Part shown: positions 1,179-51,308 of the stretch, in pieces
How positions within the stretch are numbered: the first letter of the stretch is position 1
Layout: every line of letters starts with the position of its first letter
From: Pirellulaceae bacterium
GTDB lineage: Bacteria; Planctomycetota; Planctomycetia; Pirellulales; Pirellulaceae
DNA length: 64,000 nt
Assembly: GCA_031374825.1 (NCBI GenBank)
Contig: JANMGV010000004.1
Coordinates: forward strand, 19,605-83,604
Direction: 5' to 3'
Made by a program: the position numbers and the translations under genes
Notes under the pieces: generated by a model
What the model saw: only the letters and a program-made list of their open reading frames with translations
What the model was told of the DNA's origin: nothing
The model's database searches: none

Positions 1179-2624
1179 TCAAGAAAACAGTTCCTGGATG
1201 GGCTGGAAATCGACGTACTCAGTTCCCGAAGCGTTTTCAACGTAGTGGAATGCCCGGCCCGATGGCGTGGTAGTCACTTTGCGAGTCCAGTCGATTCCTA
1301 ACGCAGAATAAATTGTGCAAGCGACATCTTCCATGTACACCGGACGCGCGGCAGACCAACCAGGATCTACAATCGTTCCTCCGATTTCATCGGTCTTGCC
1401 AAGCACCGTGCCGCCTTGCACACCGCCCCCAACGAACATTCCTGAATGAGCGTGGATGTAATGTTCGCGTCCTTTTCGAGTCTCGCTAATGTTGCCCGGG
1501 GTTCGACCAAACTCGCCCATGCAAACAATGAACGTTTCGTCTAACAGCGTTTTTGTTACGTCGTGCTTGCTGGGCACTGCAGCCAAGTCGAGAACCAGCG
1601 ACGTGATGGCTTTGTCTAATTCGGCCATCAATACGGGATGGTTGCGAGTTCCCTTTTTATAAATGTCGCCATGATGATCCCATCCACTATGACTTACCAA
1701 AATGAAACGCGTTCCTGCGTCGGCACGGAACAGATTTCGAGAAAGCGCTAACGAGACGCCGATCGAATTTTGACCGTACTGCAATTTGTCATCTTCTGAA
1801 ATTGTGAACACATCAGGAACACGCGGGTCATTCATGATATTCCAAGCACCGCGATAGTATTCGTGGTAATCTGCAAAACTACGATCCAATCCAAGGCGGT
1901 TATGACGCAACGGTTCGTCAAGCTGTTGTAGCCTTTGCCAGCGACGCTCGAGAGTCGACACCATATCGCGGCGTGGTGCTAAGTCAGGAGGTCCCTTATC
2001 GATCGACAAGTTGAGCGGACCAAATTCTGCTGAGAGAAATCCGTTGTTGATCAGTCCCGCTTGGTTTCCCGCCATATTCATCGAAATATAGGCGGGCAGT
2101 GAATCCGTAGCACGACGTTGATTGGCCAATTCATGGCATACGACCGCGCCGATGGCAGGGACTTCTTTCGACAAAGCGGGATTCAGTGGATGACCAGTTT
2201 GAATATAGTATTGAGCGCGTCCATGAACAGCATCCCAAGCGGCCATCGACCGGACGACGGCGATTTTGTCGAGGATTTTTGGCAAAGTCTGAAATACACC
2301 TTGGGGAAGCATCAATCCATTACCGCATGGCTGGATGTCAAAGTCCTCGGGTGTCCAAGGACCTTGCTTGGCGTCCAAAGAATCCAACTGGCTCATGCCG
2401 CCTTCGAGATTCACGAACAAAACTTGGCGAGCCGTTGCGTGTGGCGTAACGTCTTGCGAAGCGATCGTCCGAGTGGTTCCAAGCCAAGGCAGTGAGCCTC
2501 CCATAACGCTTAATCCACCGAGTCTTAATAACTCGCGGCGTCGAAATGAAAACGGTGTGGGATTGGTTGGGCGATGCATTACAATCCTCAAAGTTATACG
2601 TGAATTATGTTCACTCCAAATCAT
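1179..2624 (-). CDS. DUF1501 family protein (sulfatase-like fold, Tat signal)
   Basis: The N-terminus carries a twin-arginine motif (SFRRRELLRLGG). Sequence is conserved across the length in the way typical of Planctomycete DUF1501 proteins. It sits directly downstream of a DUF1549/DUF1553 gene, which is the canonical pairing. Confidence 0.85.
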   Translation of the reverse strand: MIWSEHNSRITLRIVMHRPTNPTPFSFRRRELLRLGGLSVMGGSLPWLGTTRTIASQDVTPHATARQVLFVNLEGGMSQLDSLDAKQGPWTPEDFDIQPCGNGLMLPQGVFQTLPKILDKIAVVRSMAAWDAVHGRAQYYIQTGHPLNPALSKEVPAIGAVVCHELANQRRATDSLPAYISMNMAGNQAGLINNGFLSAEFGPLNLSIDKGPPDLAPRRDMVSTLERRWQRLQQLDEPLRHNRLGLDRSFADYHEYYRGAWNIMNDPRVPDVFTISEDDKLQYGQNSIGVSLALSRNLFRADAGTRFILVSHSGWDHHGDIYKKGTRNHPVLMAELDKAITSLVLDLAAVPSKHDVTKTLLDETFIVCMGEFGRTPGNISETRKGREHYIHAHSGMFVGGGVQGGTVLGKTDEIGGTIVDPGWSAARPVYMEDVACTIYSALGIDWTRKVTTTPSGRAFHYVENASGTEYVDFQPIQELFS

Positions 2625-2675
2625 CGTTGAATCGCCACTGGCAAACGAAACAGCGTAAGTCGAAGCGATGATTTA

Positions 2676-4613
2676 CTAGTAGTTGAAAATAAAGTCCAGC
2701 TTGTTCAACAGACTCCACTGCAAGTCTTCGATTCCTGTCTGACGATCTTCCTCAACCCACTTTCCGGCAATTTCAGTTTCCGCAGCAGTTGGCATGCGCG
2801 ATAGGGTTCGCAAGTACATCGCTTCGACTATTTCATTGGGCGTCAGTTTTGATTCCAGCATCTGTTGCGAGTAGCTGGCGTTTGTAGCTGAGACTCGTTT
2901 TGTAACGAATTTGCTGTTCATCATCATCATCGCTTGCAGGATCGAACCACTCTGGCCGGGATTTGCCCATTCGCGATTCGACTGGCCAAAAGTTCGTAGT
3001 AGCTGCTTGGATTCACCATCATTAACATTCTCCGGCGTTGCAGCTTGAGTCCAATATCGGATTGGTGAGAGCGGGGTACCGTACAGCAAGTGTTTGTGCT
3101 GGTAATCGGGAAAAACACCCGTTGCCTCGACGATCGCGTCATGCAACTGTTCGGAGTTCAACATGTGTGGATAATGACGAGCGAAGTACGGGGTGTACTC
3201 AACTTCCCAGTCGGAATTAAAGTGGGATGAAAGTTGATAAGCACTCGACTGGGTAATTAATCGCATCAACGATTTTAGGCTAAACTGATTATCGGCAAAA
3301 TGTCTGGCTACTGCGTCAAGCAACTTGATGTTGGTTGGCTGAACGGTCCAGGGCGTCGGTGGTGGATTGGCTGGGTCCTGACGTGCAAGATCAAAACCAT
3401 CGATGGGCTCCACGATTCCTAGACCAAAAAATTCTTTCCAAAACAAGTTCGCAGTGGCTCGAGCAAATTGCGGGTGCTCAGTGAGCATTTTGGCAAACTG
3501 CGGACGCAGCGGTTTACTTGGGTCAGCTTTTTGACCAGTTAAGATAAACGTCGGGACCACGGGAGAACCGGACCTTTGCAATCGAACCGAACTAGCCGCG
3601 TTCGAATCGTATCCGGTGCCGTCTTCGGAGATCGTAAAACGATCTTGATAAGGAACAATGCGGACGCGAGTATTTCCGAAAAATGCCGCCATGGCCCAAA
3701 GGTCTTCACGCTTTTTGCGAGACAGTCCCAGGTCGACTTTCTCCAGAAAGCCAGCTCCGCCATGACAAGAAATACACTGAAAGTTTAGCCCCAAGAAAAA
3801 CTTAGAGGATTGGATGACAATTTCGTCCGCAGTATCTTCGTACCGATCCGAGTACATCGAATCTGCTGGGATATGCCATCGAACGAGAAAAGCAGAGGGA
3901 GCCGCGTCGGGCATCCAAGCCGAATTCGGCGCCGTTGCAGTCAGTAATTCAGTTACCATTAAGTTGTATGGCTTGTCGTCGCGCAAAGATCGACGAATCC
4001 ATGCATCAAAATTTTCCGTCGTAGCGTTGCCAATTCGATTCGCACAATTGCGAAAAAGATCTCCATACCAATACGCCCAACGATCAACCCAAGCATCCGA
4101 TGCTAGGAGTTGATCGATGACTTGCTCTCGTTTATCCAGCGCCGAATTTTGCACGAACTGTTGAACCTGCTCGGGGGTCGGTATTCTGCCGGTTAGATCG
4201 AGGTACACGCGGCGTAGAAAAGTGTAGTCGTCCGCTAGAGCTGCGTGAGGAATATTGTTTTGTTTCATCGCTTCAAACAAGTGTTCGTCGATGAGATTGC
4301 GTCGCACGATATAATTTGTATCGTTCGGATCGTTCACCAGATTTGTCGGCACCGGCAATCGATCCGTGACGGATTCGGTAATCTCGCCGACGATCGCATC
4401 AGTCCGTGATCGCGACAATTTGTCCGGTGCGTGTTCGGCGTCGTCGGGCAAGTTTTTCCGGGGCGATTGACCACTCGCTGCTGGCTCTTGCGAAACAGCA
4501 CTTAGCGCGAAAATGCACGTGACGAGTGTGCAAACTCCCCACGCGTAACGAATTGACTGGCGTGAAAGCAAATTTGCAAAACAGTTTGTTGGCGTCAGAC
4601 CTTTACGAATCAT
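2676..4613 (-). CDS. DUF1549/DUF1553 (PSCyt2 + PSD1) domain protein
   Basis: The ORF is 645 aa with a signal peptide. A CxxCH-like motif (FQCISCHGG) is typical of PSCyt2. The C-terminal region is PSD1-like. It overlaps the upstream NHL gene by 4 bp. Confidence 0.85.
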   Translation of the reverse strand: MIRKGLTPTNCFANLLSRQSIRYAWGVCTLVTCIFALSAVSQEPAASGQSPRKNLPDDAEHAPDKLSRSRTDAIVGEITESVTDRLPVPTNLVNDPNDTNYIVRRNLIDEHLFEAMKQNNIPHAALADDYTFLRRVYLDLTGRIPTPEQVQQFVQNSALDKREQVIDQLLASDAWVDRWAYWYGDLFRNCANRIGNATTENFDAWIRRSLRDDKPYNLMVTELLTATAPNSAWMPDAAPSAFLVRWHIPADSMYSDRYEDTADEIVIQSSKFFLGLNFQCISCHGGAGFLEKVDLGLSRKKREDLWAMAAFFGNTRVRIVPYQDRFTISEDGTGYDSNAASSVRLQRSGSPVVPTFILTGQKADPSKPLRPQFAKMLTEHPQFARATANLFWKEFFGLGIVEPIDGFDLARQDPANPPPTPWTVQPTNIKLLDAVARHFADNQFSLKSLMRLITQSSAYQLSSHFNSDWEVEYTPYFARHYPHMLNSEQLHDAIVEATGVFPDYQHKHLLYGTPLSPIRYWTQAATPENVNDGESKQLLRTFGQSNREWANPGQSGSILQAMMMMNSKFVTKRVSATNASYSQQMLESKLTPNEIVEAMYLRTLSRMPTAAETEIAGKWVEEDRQTGIEDLQWSLLNKLDFIFNY

Positions 4614-18828: not shown

Positions 18829-19625
18829 GGATTTTGACTCTGGGTTGGCTCGCTTGCAAAACGCGACGCGATTTGAGCGCATAGTTTCATGAAAGTCGGA
18901 TCGGATCGAAGCTCCGGCTGCCTCGGGTGCTCGAATGGTACGTCGATCCACTCTCGAATCTTTCCATTCATCAACAAGGCGATTCGATGTGAGAGGAATA
19001 CGGACTCGGCAATATTGTGCGTCACGAACAGGATCGTTCGTTTTCGTTTGGCCCACAGATCCAGCAACAATTCGTTCAGTTTGCTTCGCAGCATGTCATC
19101 CAACGCGGCAAATGGCTCGTCCAGAAGTAACAAACTAGGATCCGTCACTAAGGCACGAGCTATCGAAGCTCGCATTTTCATTCCTCCGGAAAGTTCTGAC
19201 GGTCGCTTTTTATGGTGAGCGGAGGCTAATCCAACGGTTGTCAAAATCTCTGAAGCACGCTGCCTGGAAACAGTCCTTGAAGTGTGTCTTTTCAGCTCCA
19301 AAGGCAATAAAACATTCTCGCGAATCGATCGCCACGGCAGTAAAGTTGGATCCTGAAAGACAAACGAAATATCTGATTGGGCGCCTTGGGGAGCGACACC
19401 TCCAATACGAATTTCCCCGCGAGTCGCGTCTTGTAACCCCGCGACACAACGCAACAAAGTACTCTTGCCGCAGCCGCTTGGCCCCAGCAAAGTAACAATC
19501 GTGCCCGATTGCACGTGCATATCGAGTTCATCAAGCACGATGCCATGCTTTGGAAACGAGACCGTCAACTGCGAGCAATCGACGTTTGGGGCTGGAGAGT
19601 TATTTTGCGACTCGCTTAGAATCAT
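18825..19625 (-). CDS. ABC transporter ATP-binding protein
   Basis: Walker A (GPSGCGKST), ABC signature (LSGGMKMR) and Walker B (LLLLDEP) are all present. Confidence 0.85.
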   Translation of the reverse strand: MILSESQNNSPAPNVDCSQLTVSFPKHGIVLDELDMHVQSGTIVTLLGPSGCGKSTLLRCVAGLQDATRGEIRIGGVAPQGAQSDISFVFQDPTLLPWRSIRENVLLPLELKRHTSRTVSRQRASEILTTVGLASAHHKKRPSELSGGMKMRASIARALVTDPSLLLLDEPFAALDDMLRSKLNELLLDLWAKRKRTILFVTHNIAESVFLSHRIALLMNGKIREWIDVPFEHPRQPELRSDPTFMKLCAQIASRFASEPTQSQNP

Positions 19626-41121: not shown

Positions 41122-41217
41122 CAGCATTCGGCAACTCTCAATAAGGAATTGTCCCGAATGAACTTCCCGAATAATGAAACTTGATCGTAATGTCGATCCA
41201 GGGCACCGAGTTGCACG

Positions 41218-41280
41218 TCATTCCCGCGCAGGCGGGAATCCAGGGTCAATTGCGCTGGATTCCCGCCTGCGCGGGAATGA
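41218..41280. repeat. perfect nested palindrome (two 23-bp arms, each itself a hairpin TTCCCGCgcagGCGGGAA) between convergent genes
   Basis: cattcccgcgcaggcgggaatcc ...16 nt... ggattcccgcctgcgcgggaatg. The ORF-track translation here (IPAQAGIQG...IPACAGMT) is the hallmark spurious reading of this repeat type. Confidence 0.7.
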
Positions 41281-41352
41281 CACCGATGCTCCAAACACGG
41301 AAAATATTTCGGGACTGTTCCCTGCCAATTTTACCCCAGCTACCCCTACGTA

Positions 41353-41989: not shown

Positions 41990-42400
41990 ACAGAAAGAAT
42001 CCATGAAAGTCCTGGGTTTGAGGTGGGAGCCATTTGAATATAATCTGGCGACTCGGACCCGTGATCAAGACAGTGTGACCTGTCAGTCACAAAATTTCCA
42101 ACCCCAAACCCAAAGGACAACAACTATGAAGATTCTCGCACTCGACCTCAGCAAATTCAATACGATGTGTTGCTTTTATTGATTCGAAAACTCGGAAACA
42201 TACCTTCCTGAACGCTGCAACCGACCGAAATTAAGTGGAGACCGTGTTCAAAAAACACCAAATCGACTTGGTCGCCATAGAAGCTTGTGGACCTTCGGGC
42301 TGGATCAACGACTTGGCCATCGTTTGTGCCCACAAAACCATCGTGGTGCTCGACCGTACAGCGTGCGCTTGCAACTTGCAAATTCAACGATTCAAGGGAT
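41990..42400 (+). mobile_element. truncated, frameshifted IS110-family element (left end plus first ~90 codons of transposase)
   Basis: About 130 bp are near-identical to 46553-46698. Then MKILALDL(S/G)K(F/L)NTMCCF... reads the IS110 transposase N-terminus with a 1-bp insertion and an in-frame TAA. The downstream frame reads ...ACGPSGWINDLA, then homology ends around 42400. Confidence 0.6.
42127..42400 (+). pseudogene. IS110-family transposase N-terminal fragment (pseudogene)
   Basis: See the mobile element above. The frameshift and truncation are visible by comparison with the copy at 46699. Confidence 0.55.
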
Positions 42401-43907: not shown

Positions 43908-44337
43908 TGGACGAACGTAAAACATATTGCAATCTATGCGTCGAGGGAGGTGAGTGTTTGGCCCCGTTGGTACGCTTTTGATCCCCGGCGTATAGATTGG
44001 GCGTTGAACTGAGCCGACGGAGCGGGACGATTGATCGTTACAAGTGGCTTGGGAACGCCGATTGTGCTGCGATCGCTCAACGGAACATTAGTGTATCAAT
44101 CTGCATGCGAGTTGGCAAGTTTTTGCGACTTCGAGTCTTTTCGCCGGCGCGGGCGTTTACTTTGGAAGCGTTTGTGCTGGCTGACTTTTCAGATGCCGCA
44201 TCTAAAATCGGCTAAGCGCTCCCATCGCCGACAATCAACACAACGCATCGCCGCGAGACTAAAAGATGTCTTCGCCAGCGCGCGCCCAACATCCAACGCC
44301 CCTCCAGAAACCAAGCGCAGTCGGCTTAGTTCAACGA
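43908..44337. repeat. intergenic repeat family, copy A (abuts nhaA start codon)
   Basis: About 430 bp align to 45433-45853 and, for the first ~250 bp and last ~75 bp, to 48312-48840. The ORF-track peptides MGVELSRRSG... at three loci are the same DNA read in one frame. Confidence 0.8.
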
Positions 44338-44546
44338 CTGCCGTAACCGGGCACGCGCGAGTAGGCAACCATTTGAAAAACGCCCGATCGCGTGCTCGGG
44401 CGTATGGCTTGGATCGACACTTCGGTATGAGCACCTCTTGGTCTCCATCGATTAGGCACGTTGTAGAGTATCGCTGGGATGGGATCGTCAGCCTCGTCGT
44501 TCGTAGATGTGCTCTTCGTTATCGTGACTGTCGTGCGCTTCCGCGA

Positions 44547-44774
44547 TCATCGCATGGCGATGACGATGCCAATCGCTGCAGCAGTTACGGCCGCCACAAA
44601 CGCGACCAGAATCGCACCACTACCAATCCGCCGTCGACAAAACACCGCCATCAGAACGAGTGACGCGACCGACATGCCGAGCATTGCATATGCGTTGCCC
44701 GTTGCCGTGCCGATCAAAAGTACGATTACTGCGATCGCTCCGAGTAAGTCATCATTGCGGGAGTCTGTTGGCAT
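44547..44774 (-). CDS. small 2-TM membrane protein, hypothetical
   Basis: A hydrophobic 75-aa ORF downstream of the 4-TM gene. Confidence 0.35.
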   Translation of the reverse strand: MPTDSRNDDLLGAIAVIVLLIGTATGNAYAMLGMSVASLVLMAVFCRRRIGSGAILVAFVAAVTAAAIGIVIAMR

Positions 44775-44878
44775 TTTGTTTTCCGTTCCCCGGTCGGTTG
44801 CCGAATGTCAGAATTCAGCCAGTGCGAGCTGTAGACTCAACGCAAGTCAAAACGCCTGATCGAGCAATGGTTTGCAAT

Positions 44879-45403
44879 TCATTGTTCGTCGCTTTTTGAT
44901 GGATTGTGTTTTGGATTTGATCTCCACGTCATGACGGCAATAACCATCATCGCTACCCCACCAAGGACGTACTCGTACTGATGCGCCATAGCGACAGCGA
45001 CGAGCCGACGGTCAGACTCAAAGGTCGCGCGCCGCTGTTCGATTGGAATGATGCTTGATATTGCCATTACAGTCAGCAGAATCGCAATCATGCTCATCCA
45101 CAGTGTAACACAGGCAATCGTCGTCCATTTCAGGATTCGGATTGCCTCCAGAGGCTGTTGACGTCGGTGATTGATTGACGCGACGATCGCGCCGGCGATT
45201 GCACCAAACCACCAAGATGCAGCGACACCCCACAACAACGCCAGAACCCACGGGTTCTCCGTCGGAAGAATCTTCGGGTGATGAACTGAAAAGTACTCCA
45301 CGGCGAAATTTGCGGTGACGAGATCAAGGCAAATCCCAAGAAGGCAAGCGAGGGCAGTCGATCCAAGTACAATTGTCAGGAAACGTCGCAACGCAGCATT
45401 CAT
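44879..45403 (-). CDS. hypothetical 4-TM membrane protein
   Basis: A 174-aa ORF. Repeat copy B ends ~30 bp upstream of its start codon. Confidence 0.5.
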   Translation of the reverse strand: MNAALRRFLTIVLGSTALACLLGICLDLVTANFAVEYFSVHHPKILPTENPWVLALLWGVAASWWFGAIAGAIVASINHRRQQPLEAIRILKWTTIACVTLWMSMIAILLTVMAISSIIPIEQRRATFESDRRLVAVAMAHQYEYVLGGVAMMVIAVMTWRSNPKHNPSKSDEQ

Positions 45404-45432
45404 TAGACGACCTCGTGACGAACTCCATTGAT

Positions 45433-45853
45433 TGACGAACGTATTGCAATCTATTCGTCAAGGGAGTTTGGTTGTTGGCCCCAAGTAGGTTTATGATCCC
45501 CGACGTATAGATTGGGCGTTGAACTGAGCCGACGGAGTGGTACGATCAATCGATGCAAGTGGCTTGCGAACGCCAAATGTGCTGCGACGGCTCTGCTGAG
45601 AGTCAGTGTATCAATCCGAATGCGCGTTGGCAAGTTTTTGCGAATCCGAGTCTATGGGTGGGCGCAGGTTTTGACTCTGGAAAAACTTGTGCTGGCTGAT
45701 TTTTCAGATGCCGCATCTAAAATCGGCTAAGCGCTCCCATCGCCGACAATCAACACAACGCATCGCCGCGAGACTAAAAGATGTCTTCGCCAGCGCGCGT
45801 CCAAAGTCCACTGCCCCTCCAGAAACCAAACACAGTCGGCTTAGTTCGACGAA
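45433..45853. repeat. intergenic repeat family, copy B
   Basis: See copy A. Copy B contains the same 13-bp perfect palindrome agatgccgcatct (45706-45718). Confidence 0.8.
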
Positions 45854-45858
45854 GGCGA

Positions 45859-46077
45859 TCACCCAGCAGCCGGAGGTGAAGCACCATCAGGCAAACCGAG
45901 GACCGGCGGCTTGGGGTCAGCGCGTTGTTCGGACCTCCACGGTCTACGCGGCATCGAAACGGTATTTGTTTCTCGCGATCGTGCATCCGCGACGATCCTG
46001 CTTAAGTCGTTGTCAAACCTTGCTGCGAGTTCTCGTTTAATTCGCAGAATCTCGTCGTTAATGGTGTCCATTGTCAA
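45859..46077 (-). CDS. small ORF overlapping PIN-like gene by 4 bp (possible TA partner), only N-terminal ~36 aa look protein-like
   Basis: The N-terminus reads MTMDTINDEILRIKRELAARFDNDLSRIVADARSRE. There is an ATGA overlap with the upstream gene. The C-terminal part runs into repeat B. Confidence 0.3.
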   Translation of the reverse strand: MTMDTINDEILRIKRELAARFDNDLSRIVADARSRETNTVSMPRRPWRSEQRADPKPPVLGLPDGASPPAAG

Positions 46078-46547
46078 TTCCCCAAGAGTTCATCTGGCGA
46101 ACAAATCAGCGGTGGCGTACAACCGAAGTCCTGGCAAATCTGCTCGATTACCAGTCTCGTTTCAGCGTTCGCGATGTGCGTGAAATTTAGCGTCAGCAAA
46201 TATTGTATCCCATTGATTGCTGCAAGGGATATGTGGAGTGCGTCCCGTGGTTCCGTCGCAGGAATCCCTTGACGCGACACCAGTTCGTATGCCAATGCCC
46301 TTGCATCGTCCGTGATGGCCAAGACGGATATTCCAGCAATTAAGGCCAGTCGATCGGCAGCCGCCGTGGAGTCCCCCGCAGAGCATTCATCGACCACGAT
46401 TTGCGAGACTGCGAGCTCGAATCGATCTCGCTTCGCCCACCATCGACGAGACTGAATTTGCCGAGCGGCGACAAGGATGTCCGTCTGGTCCCAAGCGGCG
46501 ATATGACCGATGACTATTGTTTCGATATAGACTGTCGGCTTGCTCAT
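46074..46547 (-). CDS. hypothetical protein, possibly PIN-like nuclease (toxin-like)
   Basis: A 157-aa acidic alpha/beta-type sequence. An IS110 copy lies ~5 bp upstream of its start codon. I could not confirm the domain by eye. Confidence 0.4.
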   Translation of the reverse strand: MSKPTVYIETIVIGHIAAWDQTDILVAARQIQSRRWWAKRDRFELAVSQIVVDECSAGDSTAAADRLALIAGISVLAITDDARALAYELVSRQGIPATEPRDALHISLAAINGIQYLLTLNFTHIANAETRLVIEQICQDFGCTPPLICSPDELLGN

Positions 46548-46698
46548 AGTCCCTTATGTCCGAAAGAACCCATATAAGTCCTGGGTTTGGGCTAGGAGCC
46601 CTTCGAATAAAATCTGGCGACTCGGACCCGTGATCAAGACAGTGTGACCTATCAGTCACATTCATTCCAACCCCAACCCCAAACCCAAAGGACATGTC

Positions 46699-47514
46699 TA
46701 TGAAAATTCTCGCACTCGACCTTGGCAAACTCAATACGATGTGCTGCTTTTTTGAATCGAAAACGCGTAAACACACCTTTCACAACGCTGCAACAGGCCG
46801 AAACTACCTGGAGACCGTGTTCAAAAAATACAAAATCGACATGGTCGCCACGGAAGCCGATTGAAGTGTGAATTCAGAATTGCGAAGTGTGAAACGTCGA
46901 AGTGTCACCAGGCGAGAGGCGTCAAACTTCAAACTTCAAACTTCAAACTTCAAACTTCAAACAAGGACAATGCCCTCAAACTTGCTCGCATGGCCTCCAT
47001 GAACGAACTCAAAGCCGTCCATATGCCCAGCGAAGAACATCGCGAGTTCCGGTCGCTGGTCAAGAACCGTAAAACACTCGACTACCGCATCAACAAGATG
47101 AAATGCACCATACGCGCTTGGTTCGGCAATCATGGCATCACGATTGACGCAGGCGATAAAGTTTGGCACACGGGACGCCAACTCATCGACTCCTTCCGCA
47201 AACCGTTTGTCGACTGCTCCGCAAACGAACTTTGGAAAGGCAAACTCGACATCGAACTAACCCAACTCGATGCACTCACCACACAACTTGACATCGTAGT
47301 CAAGAAACTCGAAGCCATCGGCAAGAAAGATCCACGCATCGCGCGAGTCCAAACGATCCCCGGCGTTGGACCACGAACCGCCGAAATCCTCGTTGCATGT
47401 ATCGACAATCCGCACCGCTTTGAGAACGGTCGCCAAGTATCCGCCTACTTTGGACTGATACCCCGCCAATACCAATCCGGTGAAACGGACCGCAACGGTC
47501 GCATCAAACTGTAA
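46699..47514 (+). pseudogene. IS110-family transposase, interrupted (internal ~40 codons replaced, frame broken)
   Basis: Compared with intact IS110 transposases, the DEDD-domain segment between ...DMVATEA and LKLA..MNELKAVHMPSEEHREFR is missing and replaced. Confidence 0.65.
46923..46955. repeat. (CAAACTT)n heptanucleotide microsatellite, ~4.7 units, inside the IS110 transposase pseudogene
   Basis: The sequence reads caaacttcaaacttcaaacttcaaacttcaaac. Confidence 0.9.
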
Positions 47515-47845
47515 ATTATTTTGATGCTTCGCCCTGGGAAGCCAATCCTCGCCGTCCTCCATTCAACGAGATCACAGGAGACTTTTTCGATCTACACAAC
47601 GACAGAGACCAGTAGCCGGACCATCAAAGAAAGCAGTAGACTGCTGTAACCGAATTTGACCGCATTGTCATTAAACCGTCAGAGTCTAACCGTGGCTGTT
47701 TTCCTCAAACCTCATTACTCAAGCCGCACACCTGTCCACCGACCCGTGCATGGATAACTGAGCAAACGCATCCTGCTAAAGCGCAGGACCATTAGAGCGA
47801 AAAGCGTTTACACCTTCTTCATCGGCGATAAGTCTTACCACTAGC

Positions 47846-48295
47846 CTATCTGTTTGGCTCGTATTGTGGAACAACATCGCTGTAAACGATAGTTCCTTCC
47901 ACGGGCCTACCATCTTCAAAGCTTCGCTGCTGCCTCGGTCCGAACCTCGCCACACGGAAGGCCACTTGCCAGGCACAATCCCTCGGTACAGAGACGGCCA
48001 ATGTACCGGACTGCCCCTTTGGGACTACCGTGCGTTGGATCGTGATCTCTTCTTCAGAGTTCTGCTTGTCGCGGTGCGTGACCAGTGTTGCAGACTCCCA
48101 CACAACGATGGGGGAATCCGCCTCATTATCAATCTCGAACACTGCGGTCAGCGTGGTATCATCCCGGAATTCCTTGAAGCGAAGGGGCAGGAGATTCGGC
48201 TGCAACTGCTTCGGGATCAATACGCCTTCGGTAAGGAGAACGATCACGAGAACGATTGCAAGGGCACCGATGCCTATTTTCGCTTTTGTGTTCAT
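47846..48295 (-). CDS. hypothetical exported protein (signal-anchor)
   Basis: I set the start at the internal Met (MNTKAKIGIGALAIVLVIVLL). The ORF-track start at 48325 would lie inside repeat copy C. Confidence 0.5.
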   Translation of the reverse strand: MNTKAKIGIGALAIVLVIVLLTEGVLIPKQLQPNLLPLRFKEFRDDTTLTAVFEIDNEADSPIVVWESATLVTHRDKQNSEEEITIQRTVVPKGQSGTLAVSVPRDCAWQVAFRVARFGPRQQRSFEDGRPVEGTIVYSDVVPQYEPNR

Positions 48296-48311
48296 GCTAA
48301 TGTTTCCGCCT

Positions 48312-48840
48312 AAAACGTATTGCAATCTATGCGTCGGGGAGGGGAGTTGTTGGCCCCTTTGGTACGTTTTTTGATCCGCGACGTATAGATTGGGCGTTGA
48401 ACTGAGCCGACGGAGCGGGATGATCGATTGTTACAAGTGGCTTGTGAACGCCGATTGTGCTGCGATGGCTCAACAGAGAGTCAGTGTATCAATCCGCACG
48501 CGAGTTGGCAAGTTTTTGCGAATTCGAGTCTGTGGGCGGGCGCGGGTTTTGACTCTGGAAACGTTTGTGCGGACTGAGAATTGTGCGGGCTGGCTTTTGC
48601 GGATGGCGCAGCGTTGAAACTCGTGGCCTGCGAAGCGTTTTCTGTTTGCCGTTCGGGCGGATGAAGTTGTCAGTGCGTGTGGGAACTTTCGATTGAATCG
48701 CGGAATGAACCCCGAACGTTCGGGGTAATGCCGGACATCTTCGAACGTCAGTTCATCGGGCATCTCAATGATGTCTTTGCTAGCGCGCGATCAAAGTCCA
48801 ATGCCCCTTCAAAAACAAGCGCGGTCGGCTTCTTCTAACG
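48312..48840. repeat. intergenic repeat family, copy C (diverged, with ~200-bp internal insertion containing palindrome aaccccgaacgttcggggt)
   Basis: It aligns to copies A and B over 48312-48560 and 48765-48840. It spans the gap between the FAD-oxidoreductase stop (48835) and a point ~19 bp upstream of the downstream gene start. Confidence 0.75.
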
Positions 48841-51111: not shown

Positions 51112-51139
51112 AGTCTTCGAATTGAACACACCTTATACT

Positions 51140-51308
51140 CCGCGCGGTCAGATTTGAGGTTTTGTGAGCGGCGAGGCGCTAGCCGCCGGTGCTGACCGAA
51201 TGCACAACCTGTGGCTAGCGCCTTGCGGCTCACTCAACAACACGTCCCTCACTTCTGACCGCACGGCTTATAAATAGCCCAGAGATTCTCATCTGGGCTA
51301 TTTTCGTT
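51140..51308 (+). ncRNA. candidate structured small RNA (nested long hairpin plus intrinsic terminator)
   Basis: An outer stem (gcggtcaga 51144-51152 / tctgaccgc 51254-51262) encloses a 20-bp inner stem (gtgagcggcgaggcgctagc / gctagcgccttgcggctcac). A terminator hairpin follows: aaatagcccaga-gattctca-tctgggctattt, then TTTCGTTTC. Confidence 0.35.

Follow-up and report, generated by a model that had tools for sequence, protein, structure and literature searches.

The DNA analysed here is a stretch of 64,000 nucleotides (the window; positions 19,605 to 83,604 of the forward strand of contig JANMGV010000004.1) from the assembly GCA_031374825.1 of a Pirellulaceae bacterium. A repeat search combined with alignment located three copies of a non-coding repeat in the window, named A, B and C, all in one orientation, with a 28-mer core that occurs three times against an expectation of zero. 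Three co-oriented copies had already been proposed in the original prediction, and their limits could be refined (Table 1). In gene direction, the region starts with a FAD oxidoreductase gene followed by copy C, an exported-protein gene, debris of an IS110 insertion sequence and a PIN-toxin cassette with an attC-like site. It continues with copy B, a cassette for a 174-aa protein with four transmembrane segments (4-TM) and its attC-like site, a 75-aa cassette and its attC-like site, copy A and nhaA. We describe the relation of the three repeats to full-length mobile elements of the IS91 type and to the integron-type cassette array in which they lie.

The pairwise identity of the three copies is 84–87%, and they are therefore old. 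Start codons of the genes that follow them are located 18–34 nt past the terminal GTT of the copies. The plus strand of each copy contains an open reading frame (ORF) beginning with MGVELSRRSG, which is 72, 72 and 75 aa long and aligns without gaps and without a frameshift. Frameshifts between the copies had earlier been given as the reason to regard the repeat as non-coding; that reason does not hold for the window, whereas the conclusion does. In 45 relatives the frame changes and the stop codon falls after 15 to 130 codons, and since neither length nor frame is maintained the repeat is non-coding and the 72-aa ORF was rejected as a gene.

At the gene-proximal (right) end, 32 junctions show the similarity between copies breaking off precisely at ...GCAATACGTT. 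The generic right end, read in gene direction, consists of GTCGGCTCAGTTCAAC, GCC, a hairpin, CAATAC and GTT. None of the 32 junctions has G directly after GTT; the base there is A, C or T, and no target-site duplication beyond GTT is visible at the junctions. The hairpin corresponds to an inverted pair noticed previously near the proximal end of each copy, and it is real: among 31 relatives 87.6% of its positions are paired as compared to 26–39% in shifted controls, compensatory changes are present in 11 of 18 pairs, and none of 500 shuffles was as good. In intact elements the stem has 18–30 contiguous pairs and lies 6 nt from the end, being perfect in full-length copies. While the sequence of the stem varies freely, the flanking DNA motifs GTTCAACGCC and GCAATACGTT are invariant. 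In the full-length relatives this hairpin is located directly after the transposase gene as the sub-terminal palindrome of an IS91-type element end; the imperfect palindrome expected at the oriIS end of such elements is thus present in this position.

Variants of the right end were also seen. Short forms that lack the hairpin and pass from CAATCTATACGTT directly into flanking DNA are present in four of the related loci and contigs used for comparison (given here by L numbers), at ~2560 in L009, ~794 in L014, ~5943 in L015 and ~1917 in L016. Loss of the stretch between the two ACGT words, or cleavage at a secondary site, would give such a structure. In L023 (~950–975) the last 12 nt of the right end are tandemly duplicated (TTGCAATACGTT twice).

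The distal (left) end of copies A and B carries the motif GTTGAACTAAGCCGAC, which is found in eight further copies, among them the distant L011, L020 and L022, where it lies upstream of the recombinase gene. The first 16 bases of the element are the inverted complement of the 16 bases preceding the right-end hairpin. This inverted repeat of 16–17 bp is terminal on the left and placed ~95 nt inside the right end, an arrangement that differs from the terminal repeats of a classical miniature inverted-repeat transposable element (MITE). A 13-bp palindrome, suggested earlier to bind a regulator, is indeed perfect in copies A and B, but it is perfect in these two alone and not conserved in five related copies, and a role as an operator was rejected for this reason.

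A 20-mer of the core is found without mismatch at 17 genome loci and 15 metagenome loci, which belong to Pirellulaceae and other Planctomycetota. One metagenome-assembled genome (MAG) contains at least 15 copies, and many contigs carry several co-oriented copies spaced 0.7–3 kb apart. In L005 and L012 the repeat begins 5 nt past the stop codon of an IS91-family transposase gene. The L005 transposase scores 269 bits on NF033538 (cut-off 125), contains the Y2_Tnp (PF04986) and Zn_Tnp_IS91 (PF14319) domains, and has HPHIHALV and YLTRY in its translation. The hallmark of the IS91 family, a zinc-binding N-terminus with a Y2 HUH domain, is therefore a property of the parent transposase alone and not of the window copies, which encode no transposase. 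A tyrosine recombinase gene is located directly 5' of the transposase gene, so that the intact order is the left end GTTGAACTAAGCCGAC, a Xer/IntI-like tyrosine recombinase, an IS91-family (HUH, two-tyrosine) transposase, ~370 nt and the right end. On ten metagenome contigs recombinase, transposase, ~350 nt and the conserved motif follow each other in this same order at a protein identity of only ~50%. XerA and IntI4 are the closest solved relatives of the recombinase, and integron-integrase models are among its best NCBIfam matches. A second, distant recombinase and IS91-transposase pair (~26–27% identity) lies in L006 at 2195–4080 (+), on a contig that also bears a repeat copy in the opposite orientation, and suggests that several lineages of such elements coexist in a single genome.

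Both ends of the window copies are common to L004, L005, L011 and L012, and relics of the 5' region of the recombinase gene sit between both ends in L001, L004, L010 and L015. The window copies keep both parental ends, lack the interior and the transposase, and several copies share a single breakpoint, as is characteristic of non-autonomous derivatives. Judged from these comparisons of sequence, the repeats are internally deleted, non-autonomous copies of the IS91-type element. The internal deletion breakpoint is identical in copy A, copy B and L014, and copies A and B therefore appear to have spread as a miniature element. The breakpoint of copy C is different, and copy C appears to be an independent deletion. 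It retains ~190 nt that in L005 and L012 directly follow the transposase stop codon; the segment of ~200 bp previously described as an insertion in copy C is therefore retained parental sequence that has been deleted from A and B. A perfect 16-bp palindrome, ccccgaacgttcgggg, is present at 48710–48725 in the C-specific segment, just past the part that can be aligned to L005 and L012 and within a stretch alignable to L001.

The hairpins flanking the left ends belong to a separate family. We built a covariance model (R1) of these attC-like sites from 16 of the hairpins. It detects three sites in the window and a further 46 in the related loci; every one of them has the orientation of the genes, and the spacing is 0.3–1.2 kb. 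Each site comprises a 7-nt box ending in AAC, three unpaired bases, a 21-nt arm with two bulges (one of them an invariant A), a loop of ~35 nt, an 18-nt partner arm, four unpaired bases and a 7-nt box starting with GTT, with a total of ~96 nt. The features by which attC sites are recognized, namely R''/R' boxes with AAC and GTT, spacers, extrahelical bases, a loop and a length of 57–141 nt, can all be identified in the alignments. Across the family 89% of positions are paired as compared to 29–41% in shifted controls, with 247 compensatory cells, and none of 500 shuffles was as good. Folding of the flanks as single sequences was uninformative (z-scores from +0.5 to -1.2).

A signature of gene cassettes accompanies these sites. 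In 12 of 21 cassettes, the R'' box of a site is matched exactly, as reverse complement, by the 7 bases that follow the preceding site; the mean match is 3.33 of four variable positions, as compared to 2.07 for shuffled partners (0 of 20,000 as high) and 1.73 for the two boxes of one site. Exact pairs that deviate from the consensus include GTTCTCA/TGAGAAC and GTTATGT/ACATAAC. End-box complementarity is the product of recombination at G|TT between attC sites (PMC4889954), and because this outcome is the expected one we read the attC-like sites as a cassette array. The gene content is in line with this reading, since the cassettes encode PIN and ParE toxins, small uncharacterised proteins and secreted enzymes, and integrons have been documented in Planctomycetes (PMC4889954; PMC3108266). 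The two-cassette module between copies B and A (44547–45403, minus strand) recurs with the same boundaries in L035 and L036. Homologues of the 174-aa protein are widespread (130 matches at E <= 1e-5 across Planctomycetota, with identities from 100% to 48% among the 120 listed), and its gene has a different neighbourhood in every context that was read. Exact-protein look-ups of NhaA and of the 174-aa protein returned no match.

The sequence of ~95 nt upstream of every left end can be aligned across unrelated contexts, and 11 of 13 left ends adjoin the attC-like match exactly at GTT. Copies A and B are separated from the preceding ORF by a 96-nt attC-like site. An earlier statement that each copy begins close to the preceding stop codon thus holds for copy C alone, whose degenerate left end overlaps the FAD oxidoreductase stop codon (TAG, 48837–48835). 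Loci without the element are informative in this respect. L035 and L036, in which the 174-aa protein has 90% identity, agree with the window in the right-end junction before the two-gene module and in the hairpin behind it, but no element follows. In L040 and L042 (83% and 75% identity) an attC-like hairpin and GTT stand directly before the homologous 174-aa gene, which represents the empty site for copy B. The possibility that the element reaches through the upstream hairpin as its terIS palindrome was rejected, since this hairpin occurs without the element in L035 and directly before the homologous gene in L040 and L042.

The element resembles a cassette in its boxes as well. It starts with GTTGAAC and carries the complementary GTTCAAC before its own hairpin, while the cassette that follows keeps its own matching box, as in L005 (GTTACGG/CCGTAAC) and after copy B (GTTCGTC/GACGAAC) and also in L010, L012, L013 and L019. 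By its GTT boundaries and this complementarity, the element would formally count as one more cassette. In L025 (70–164) a right end is fused directly to an attC-like site lacking its first box, and another left end follows that site.

A sigma-70-like site is conserved in the repeats, about 100 nt inside the right end, and points through this end to the next gene. With few exceptions the copies carry the pattern TTGCCA-N17/18-TA[C/A/G]ACT, usually with a TG extension, 80–120 nt upstream of the inner repeat, and its hexamers are kept even in full-length elements with unrelated sequence in the spacer and the flanks. Of the 32 junctions, 27 have the start of a co-oriented ORF (at least 50 aa) within 80 nt, usually at 7–55 nt; this is a weak test, as random positions give 58%. 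In other genomes the genes after the module are unrelated to each other and include PIN and ParE toxins, an esterase, a transglutaminase and an ankyrin protein. Since the outward promoter-like site is conserved, each copy likely transcribes the next cassette, and the copies would in this way supply transcription to downstream cassettes that are otherwise promoterless.

Table 1. Features of the repeat and cassette region in window coordinates; the limits of the copies include the GTT of the gene-proximal end.
Feature	Position	Strand	Remarks
Copy A	43921-44335	-	Internally deleted element; left end GTTGAACTAAGCCGAC from 44335; right end ...GCAATATGTT to 43921; followed by nhaA
Copy B	45438-45850	-	Left end GTCGAACTAAGCCGAC from 45850; right end ...GCAATACGTT to 45438; followed by the 174-aa 4-TM gene cassette
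Copy C	48314-48839	-	Deletion derivative other than A/B; degenerate left end GTTAGAAGAAGCCGAC; followed by the 149-aa exported-protein gene
Right-end module of A	43921-44018	-	GTCGGCTCAGTTCAAC, GCC, imperfect 17-bp hairpin, CAATAT, GTT
Right-end module of B	45438-45533	-	Equivalent of the A module
Right-end module of C	48314-48411	-	Equivalent of the A module
Sigma-70-like site of A	44090-44118	-	TTGCCA-N17-TACACT with TG extension, pointing through the right end to the next gene
Sigma-70-like site of B	45605-45633	-	Equivalent of the A site
Sigma-70-like site of C	48483-48511	-	Equivalent of the A site
attC-like site	44329-44424	-	79.5 bits; ends the 75-aa ORF cassette; copy A begins at R' GTT; homologous empty site in L035
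attC-like site	44800-44896	-	34.4 bits; ends the 174-aa cassette; R'' GACGAAC is the exact complement of GTTCGTC after copy B
attC-like site	45844-45939	-	66.3 bits; ends the PIN-toxin/small-ORF cassette; copy B begins at the R' position
75-aa ORF cassette	44547-44774	-	Between B and A
174-aa 4-TM protein cassette, gene	44879-45403	-	Between B and A
PIN-domain toxin gene	46074-46547	-	In region 45859-46547
Small ORF downstream of the PIN toxin	in 45859-46547	-	Ends inside the attC-like site
nhaA start codon	43895	-	NhaA, PF06965; after copy A
174-aa protein start codon	45403	-	After copy B; no Pfam match
149-aa exported protein start codon	48295	-	After copy C

Taken together, we consider it probable that the repeats are gutted copies of an IS91-type element placed at the GTT crossovers of attC-like sites in an integron-type array, each aiming a promoter-like site at the next gene. 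A MITE-like element with an outward promoter and a cassette-array-like organisation had been listed before as separate candidate explanations; each of them was right in part, and the two belong together. Several observations weigh against our reading. No integron integrase or tyrosine recombinase is encoded in the 64-kb window, and no integron integrase was found beside any of the arrays that could be read. A tblastn search with an approximate IntI1 query found only the element's own recombinase (L011, L005, L006) and nothing in the window. Since the window has no integrase, the locus can be no more than a CALIN (a cluster of attC sites lacking an integrase), and it appears to be a small integron-type cassette array without a nearby integrase. 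An attC-like site is absent upstream of copy C and also after nhaA and the exported-protein gene, where a complementary R'' 7-mer is absent as well. The element's recombinase scores under the integron-integrase cut-offs (189 against 265 for TIGR02249 and 137.5 against 435 for NF011946) and matches IntI4 in two pieces, as though the IntI-specific insert were missing.

The ends of the element provide further points of this kind. Its hairpin has no bulged bases in intact copies, its spacers of 3 and 6 nt differ from those of the resident sites, and model R1 gives no match on it; from the unbulged stem and the different box spacing it follows that the element's end is not a canonical attC. The left end starts with GTTGAACTAAGCCGAC and has no sub-terminal palindrome of its own, the adjoining hairpin being the resident attC-like site. 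The tetranucleotide at the right end is 5'-DAAC on the strand expected to be nicked, as opposed to the GTTC or CTTG of tested IS91-family members. There is no sign of current mobility among the window copies. The promoter is a consensus match only, and a 17-bp hairpin lies between it and the gene.

Among the alternatives, the one that survives best is that the element is the integron platform itself, with its recombinase as an atypical integron integrase, the right-end hairpin as an attI-like capture site and the IS91 transposase mobilising the platform. It would then resemble ISCR1 beside class 1 integrons, and the three window copies would be decayed platforms or array heads. Such an arrangement would account for L005, in which recombinase, transposase and right end precede four or more cassettes that all terminate in an attC-like site, and for copy C, which heads the window array beside a housekeeping-type gene with no attC-like site upstream. 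The relationship of the recombinase to XerA, IntI4 and the integron-integrase models is in line with it too. We nevertheless regard this possibility as unlikely. The attC-like site before 11 of 13 left ends places the element inside arrays, its left end and its right-end box are complementary to each other in the manner of a cassette, and the recombinase fails both integron-integrase cut-offs and seems to be without the IntI-specific insert. The same gene pair is moreover present on a plasmid of Acidiphilium, and the class of that genus has been reported to be without integrons (PMC4889954).

A plain IS91-type MITE landing at any short GTT/AAC target is very improbable. Position before genes would then reflect selection or tolerance, and the flanking hairpins would be ordinary terminators. 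The inner part of several flanking hairpins is terminator-like (a GC stem followed by a T run), the folding energies of the flanks are mostly unremarkable, and the target of the IS91 family is a tetranucleotide that is not duplicated (PMC13181058). The hairpins, however, can be aligned as a single family in which bulged bases are invariant and covariation is heavy, they recur between genes without the element, and the cassette-specific end-box complementarity is not expected of terminators, so that their interpretation as plain terminators was rejected. According to the original prediction, many scattered copies would point to a plain MITE. Copies are indeed numerous, at least 15 in the MAG mentioned above, but their position is non-random: in 11 of 13 cases the element has entered at the same fixed point, the crossover GTT of an attC-like site. 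The plain MITE is thereby largely refuted.

Least credible of all, and to our minds hardly tenable, is the earlier proposal of a shared cis-regulatory leader, either a structured 5' untranslated region or a regulator-binding module with paired operator half-sites, for ion-transport and envelope genes: a conserved promoter-like site and hairpin upstream of each gene and the membrane or exported products of the window genes are in its favour, whereas Rfam 15 gives no match in the window at the gathering score (a single chance match of 17.9 bits, outside the repeats, appears at E-values up to 5), the downstream genes elsewhere are functionally unrelated, the module is the end of a transposase-encoding element, the free stem beside invariant GTTCAACGCC and GCAATACGTT is as expected of a DNA recombination site, and the proposed operator palindrome is not conserved.

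Returning to the IS91-type element at attC-like sites, it is tempting to ask how it would arrive there. The element would insert exactly at the GTT crossover of a resident attC-like site. As GTTGAAC is complementary to GTTCAAC, a circular form with the joined ends ...GATTGCAATAC-GTTGAACTAAGCCGAC would restore a single long attC-like stem around a central GTT. The layout 'xAAC|G, 4-5 nt, long hairpin' is common to the element's right end and the resident site when the strand opposite the genes is read, and it would let the HUH transposase take attC sites as mimics of its own origin. Alternatively, the Xer/IntI-like recombinase or a host IntI might integrate the circle at G|TT. Three enzymes are thus candidates for moving the element (its HUH transposase, its own recombinase and the integron integrase of a host), and both the mobility of the element and the activity of its promoter are presumed from these features.

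A more far-reaching and more tentative idea, which we consider possible though rather doubtful at present, is that this is an undescribed attC-site-specific element which combines an HUH transposase producing single-stranded circles with a Xer/IntI-like recombinase, has joined ends that mimic attC, and enters arrays as a self-encoded 'cassette'. Its miniatures would then be portable promoters that activate silent cassettes deep in Planctomycetota arrays. One interesting twist would be that a transposon imitates a gene cassette. In the part of the literature that could be searched, we came across neither an account of IS91-type elements in attC sites nor one of cassette repeats in Planctomycetota.

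Cassettes distant from the integron promoter are usually regarded as silent. To our knowledge, expression of distal cassettes through a mobile promoter has so far been proposed mainly for group IIC-attC introns. If our proposal is true, a promoter-bearing pseudo-cassette landing precisely before cassettes would be a route to distal gene expression in arrays. The element would also join IS91-type rolling-circle transposition with attC hairpin recombination, both of which act on single-stranded DNA, and the unexplained tyrosine recombinase of one IS91 subgroup becomes testable. On the practical side, the ~96-nt attC-like sites and the repeats are liable to be misannotated as 'intergenic repeats' or small ORFs in Pirellulaceae, and the covariance model finds the sites cleanly.

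We judge ISCR1 and the group IIC-attC introns to be the closest analogues of the element. As in ISCR1 and the IS91 family, the parent element encodes an IS91-family HUH transposase, and as in ISCR elements it has a 'common region' with an exact boundary downstream of the transposase gene, followed by diverse co-oriented genes. Outward promoters are located in the oriIS region of ISCR elements, and ISCR1 drives downstream genes (PMC6218425). Members of the IS91 family produce no target duplication, use a short conserved target at the oriIS end, GTTC or CTTG in tested members, and have a sub-terminal palindrome there (PMC13181058). In comparison to ISCR1, the parent element has an additional Xer/IntI-like tyrosine recombinase, and its insertion point is the crossover of an attC-like site and not a 3'-conserved segment or a bare GTTC/CTTG. 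Its flanking bases on the strand expected to be nicked (DAAC) and the complementarity of its left end to the right-end box set it apart from ISCR1 and IS91. The window itself, unlike ISCR1, holds transposase-less miniature copies only.

With group IIC-attC introns and IS1111-attC elements it shares a fixed position in the attC sites of arrays and a single orientation. Group IIC-attC introns are reported to carry outward promoters able to express the downstream cassette (PMC3001079). The element differs from both in having an HUH transposase and a tyrosine recombinase in place of a retro-homing ribozyme or a guide-RNA DEDD transposase, and in mimicking a cassette with its own attC-like end. The 96-nt sites of the window are comparable to the Vibrio cholerae repeats of sedentary chromosomal integrons, being a homogeneous family with R and L boxes, bulges and a variable loop, located 3' of small co-oriented ORFs including toxin-antitoxin cassettes and bounded by chimeric end boxes. 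The definition of a CALIN as a cluster without a nearby integrase (PMC4889954) fits the window locus. In contrast to sedentary integrons and CALINs, the repeats of 415–526 bp adjoin the sites and are not the sites themselves, and no integrase is seen.

Plasmid pACRY02 of Acidiphilium cryptum (NC_009468), the plasmid referred to above, carries genes annotated as a tyrosine-type recombinase/integrase and an IS91 family transposase in the same order with a gap of a few bases, and a left-end-like motif, GTTACTTGAGCCGAC, stands upstream of the recombinase gene. The transposase is only ~35% identical, and the 600 nt that were read contain no matching right end.

Some minor features of the window were also observed. 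Two copies of an IS110-family element (PF02371), both fragmented, are located at 41993–42284 and 46562–47514 (+), the second being broken by a (TCAAACT)n tandem run at ~46922–46960. Near the arrays in L001, L009 and L010 this IS110 is present too; it may be another attC-associated insertion sequence, and it may have removed the attC-like site of the exported-protein cassette. At 51133–51273 two nested imperfect inverted repeats (27 and 32 nt) occupy an intergenic position. At 41217–41281, just past the glucose-6-phosphate dehydrogenase gene, GTCATTCCCGCGCAGGCGGGAATCCAG and its complement form a perfect inverted repeat of 27 nt around a loop of 11 nt, which might be a terminator or belong to another repeat family.

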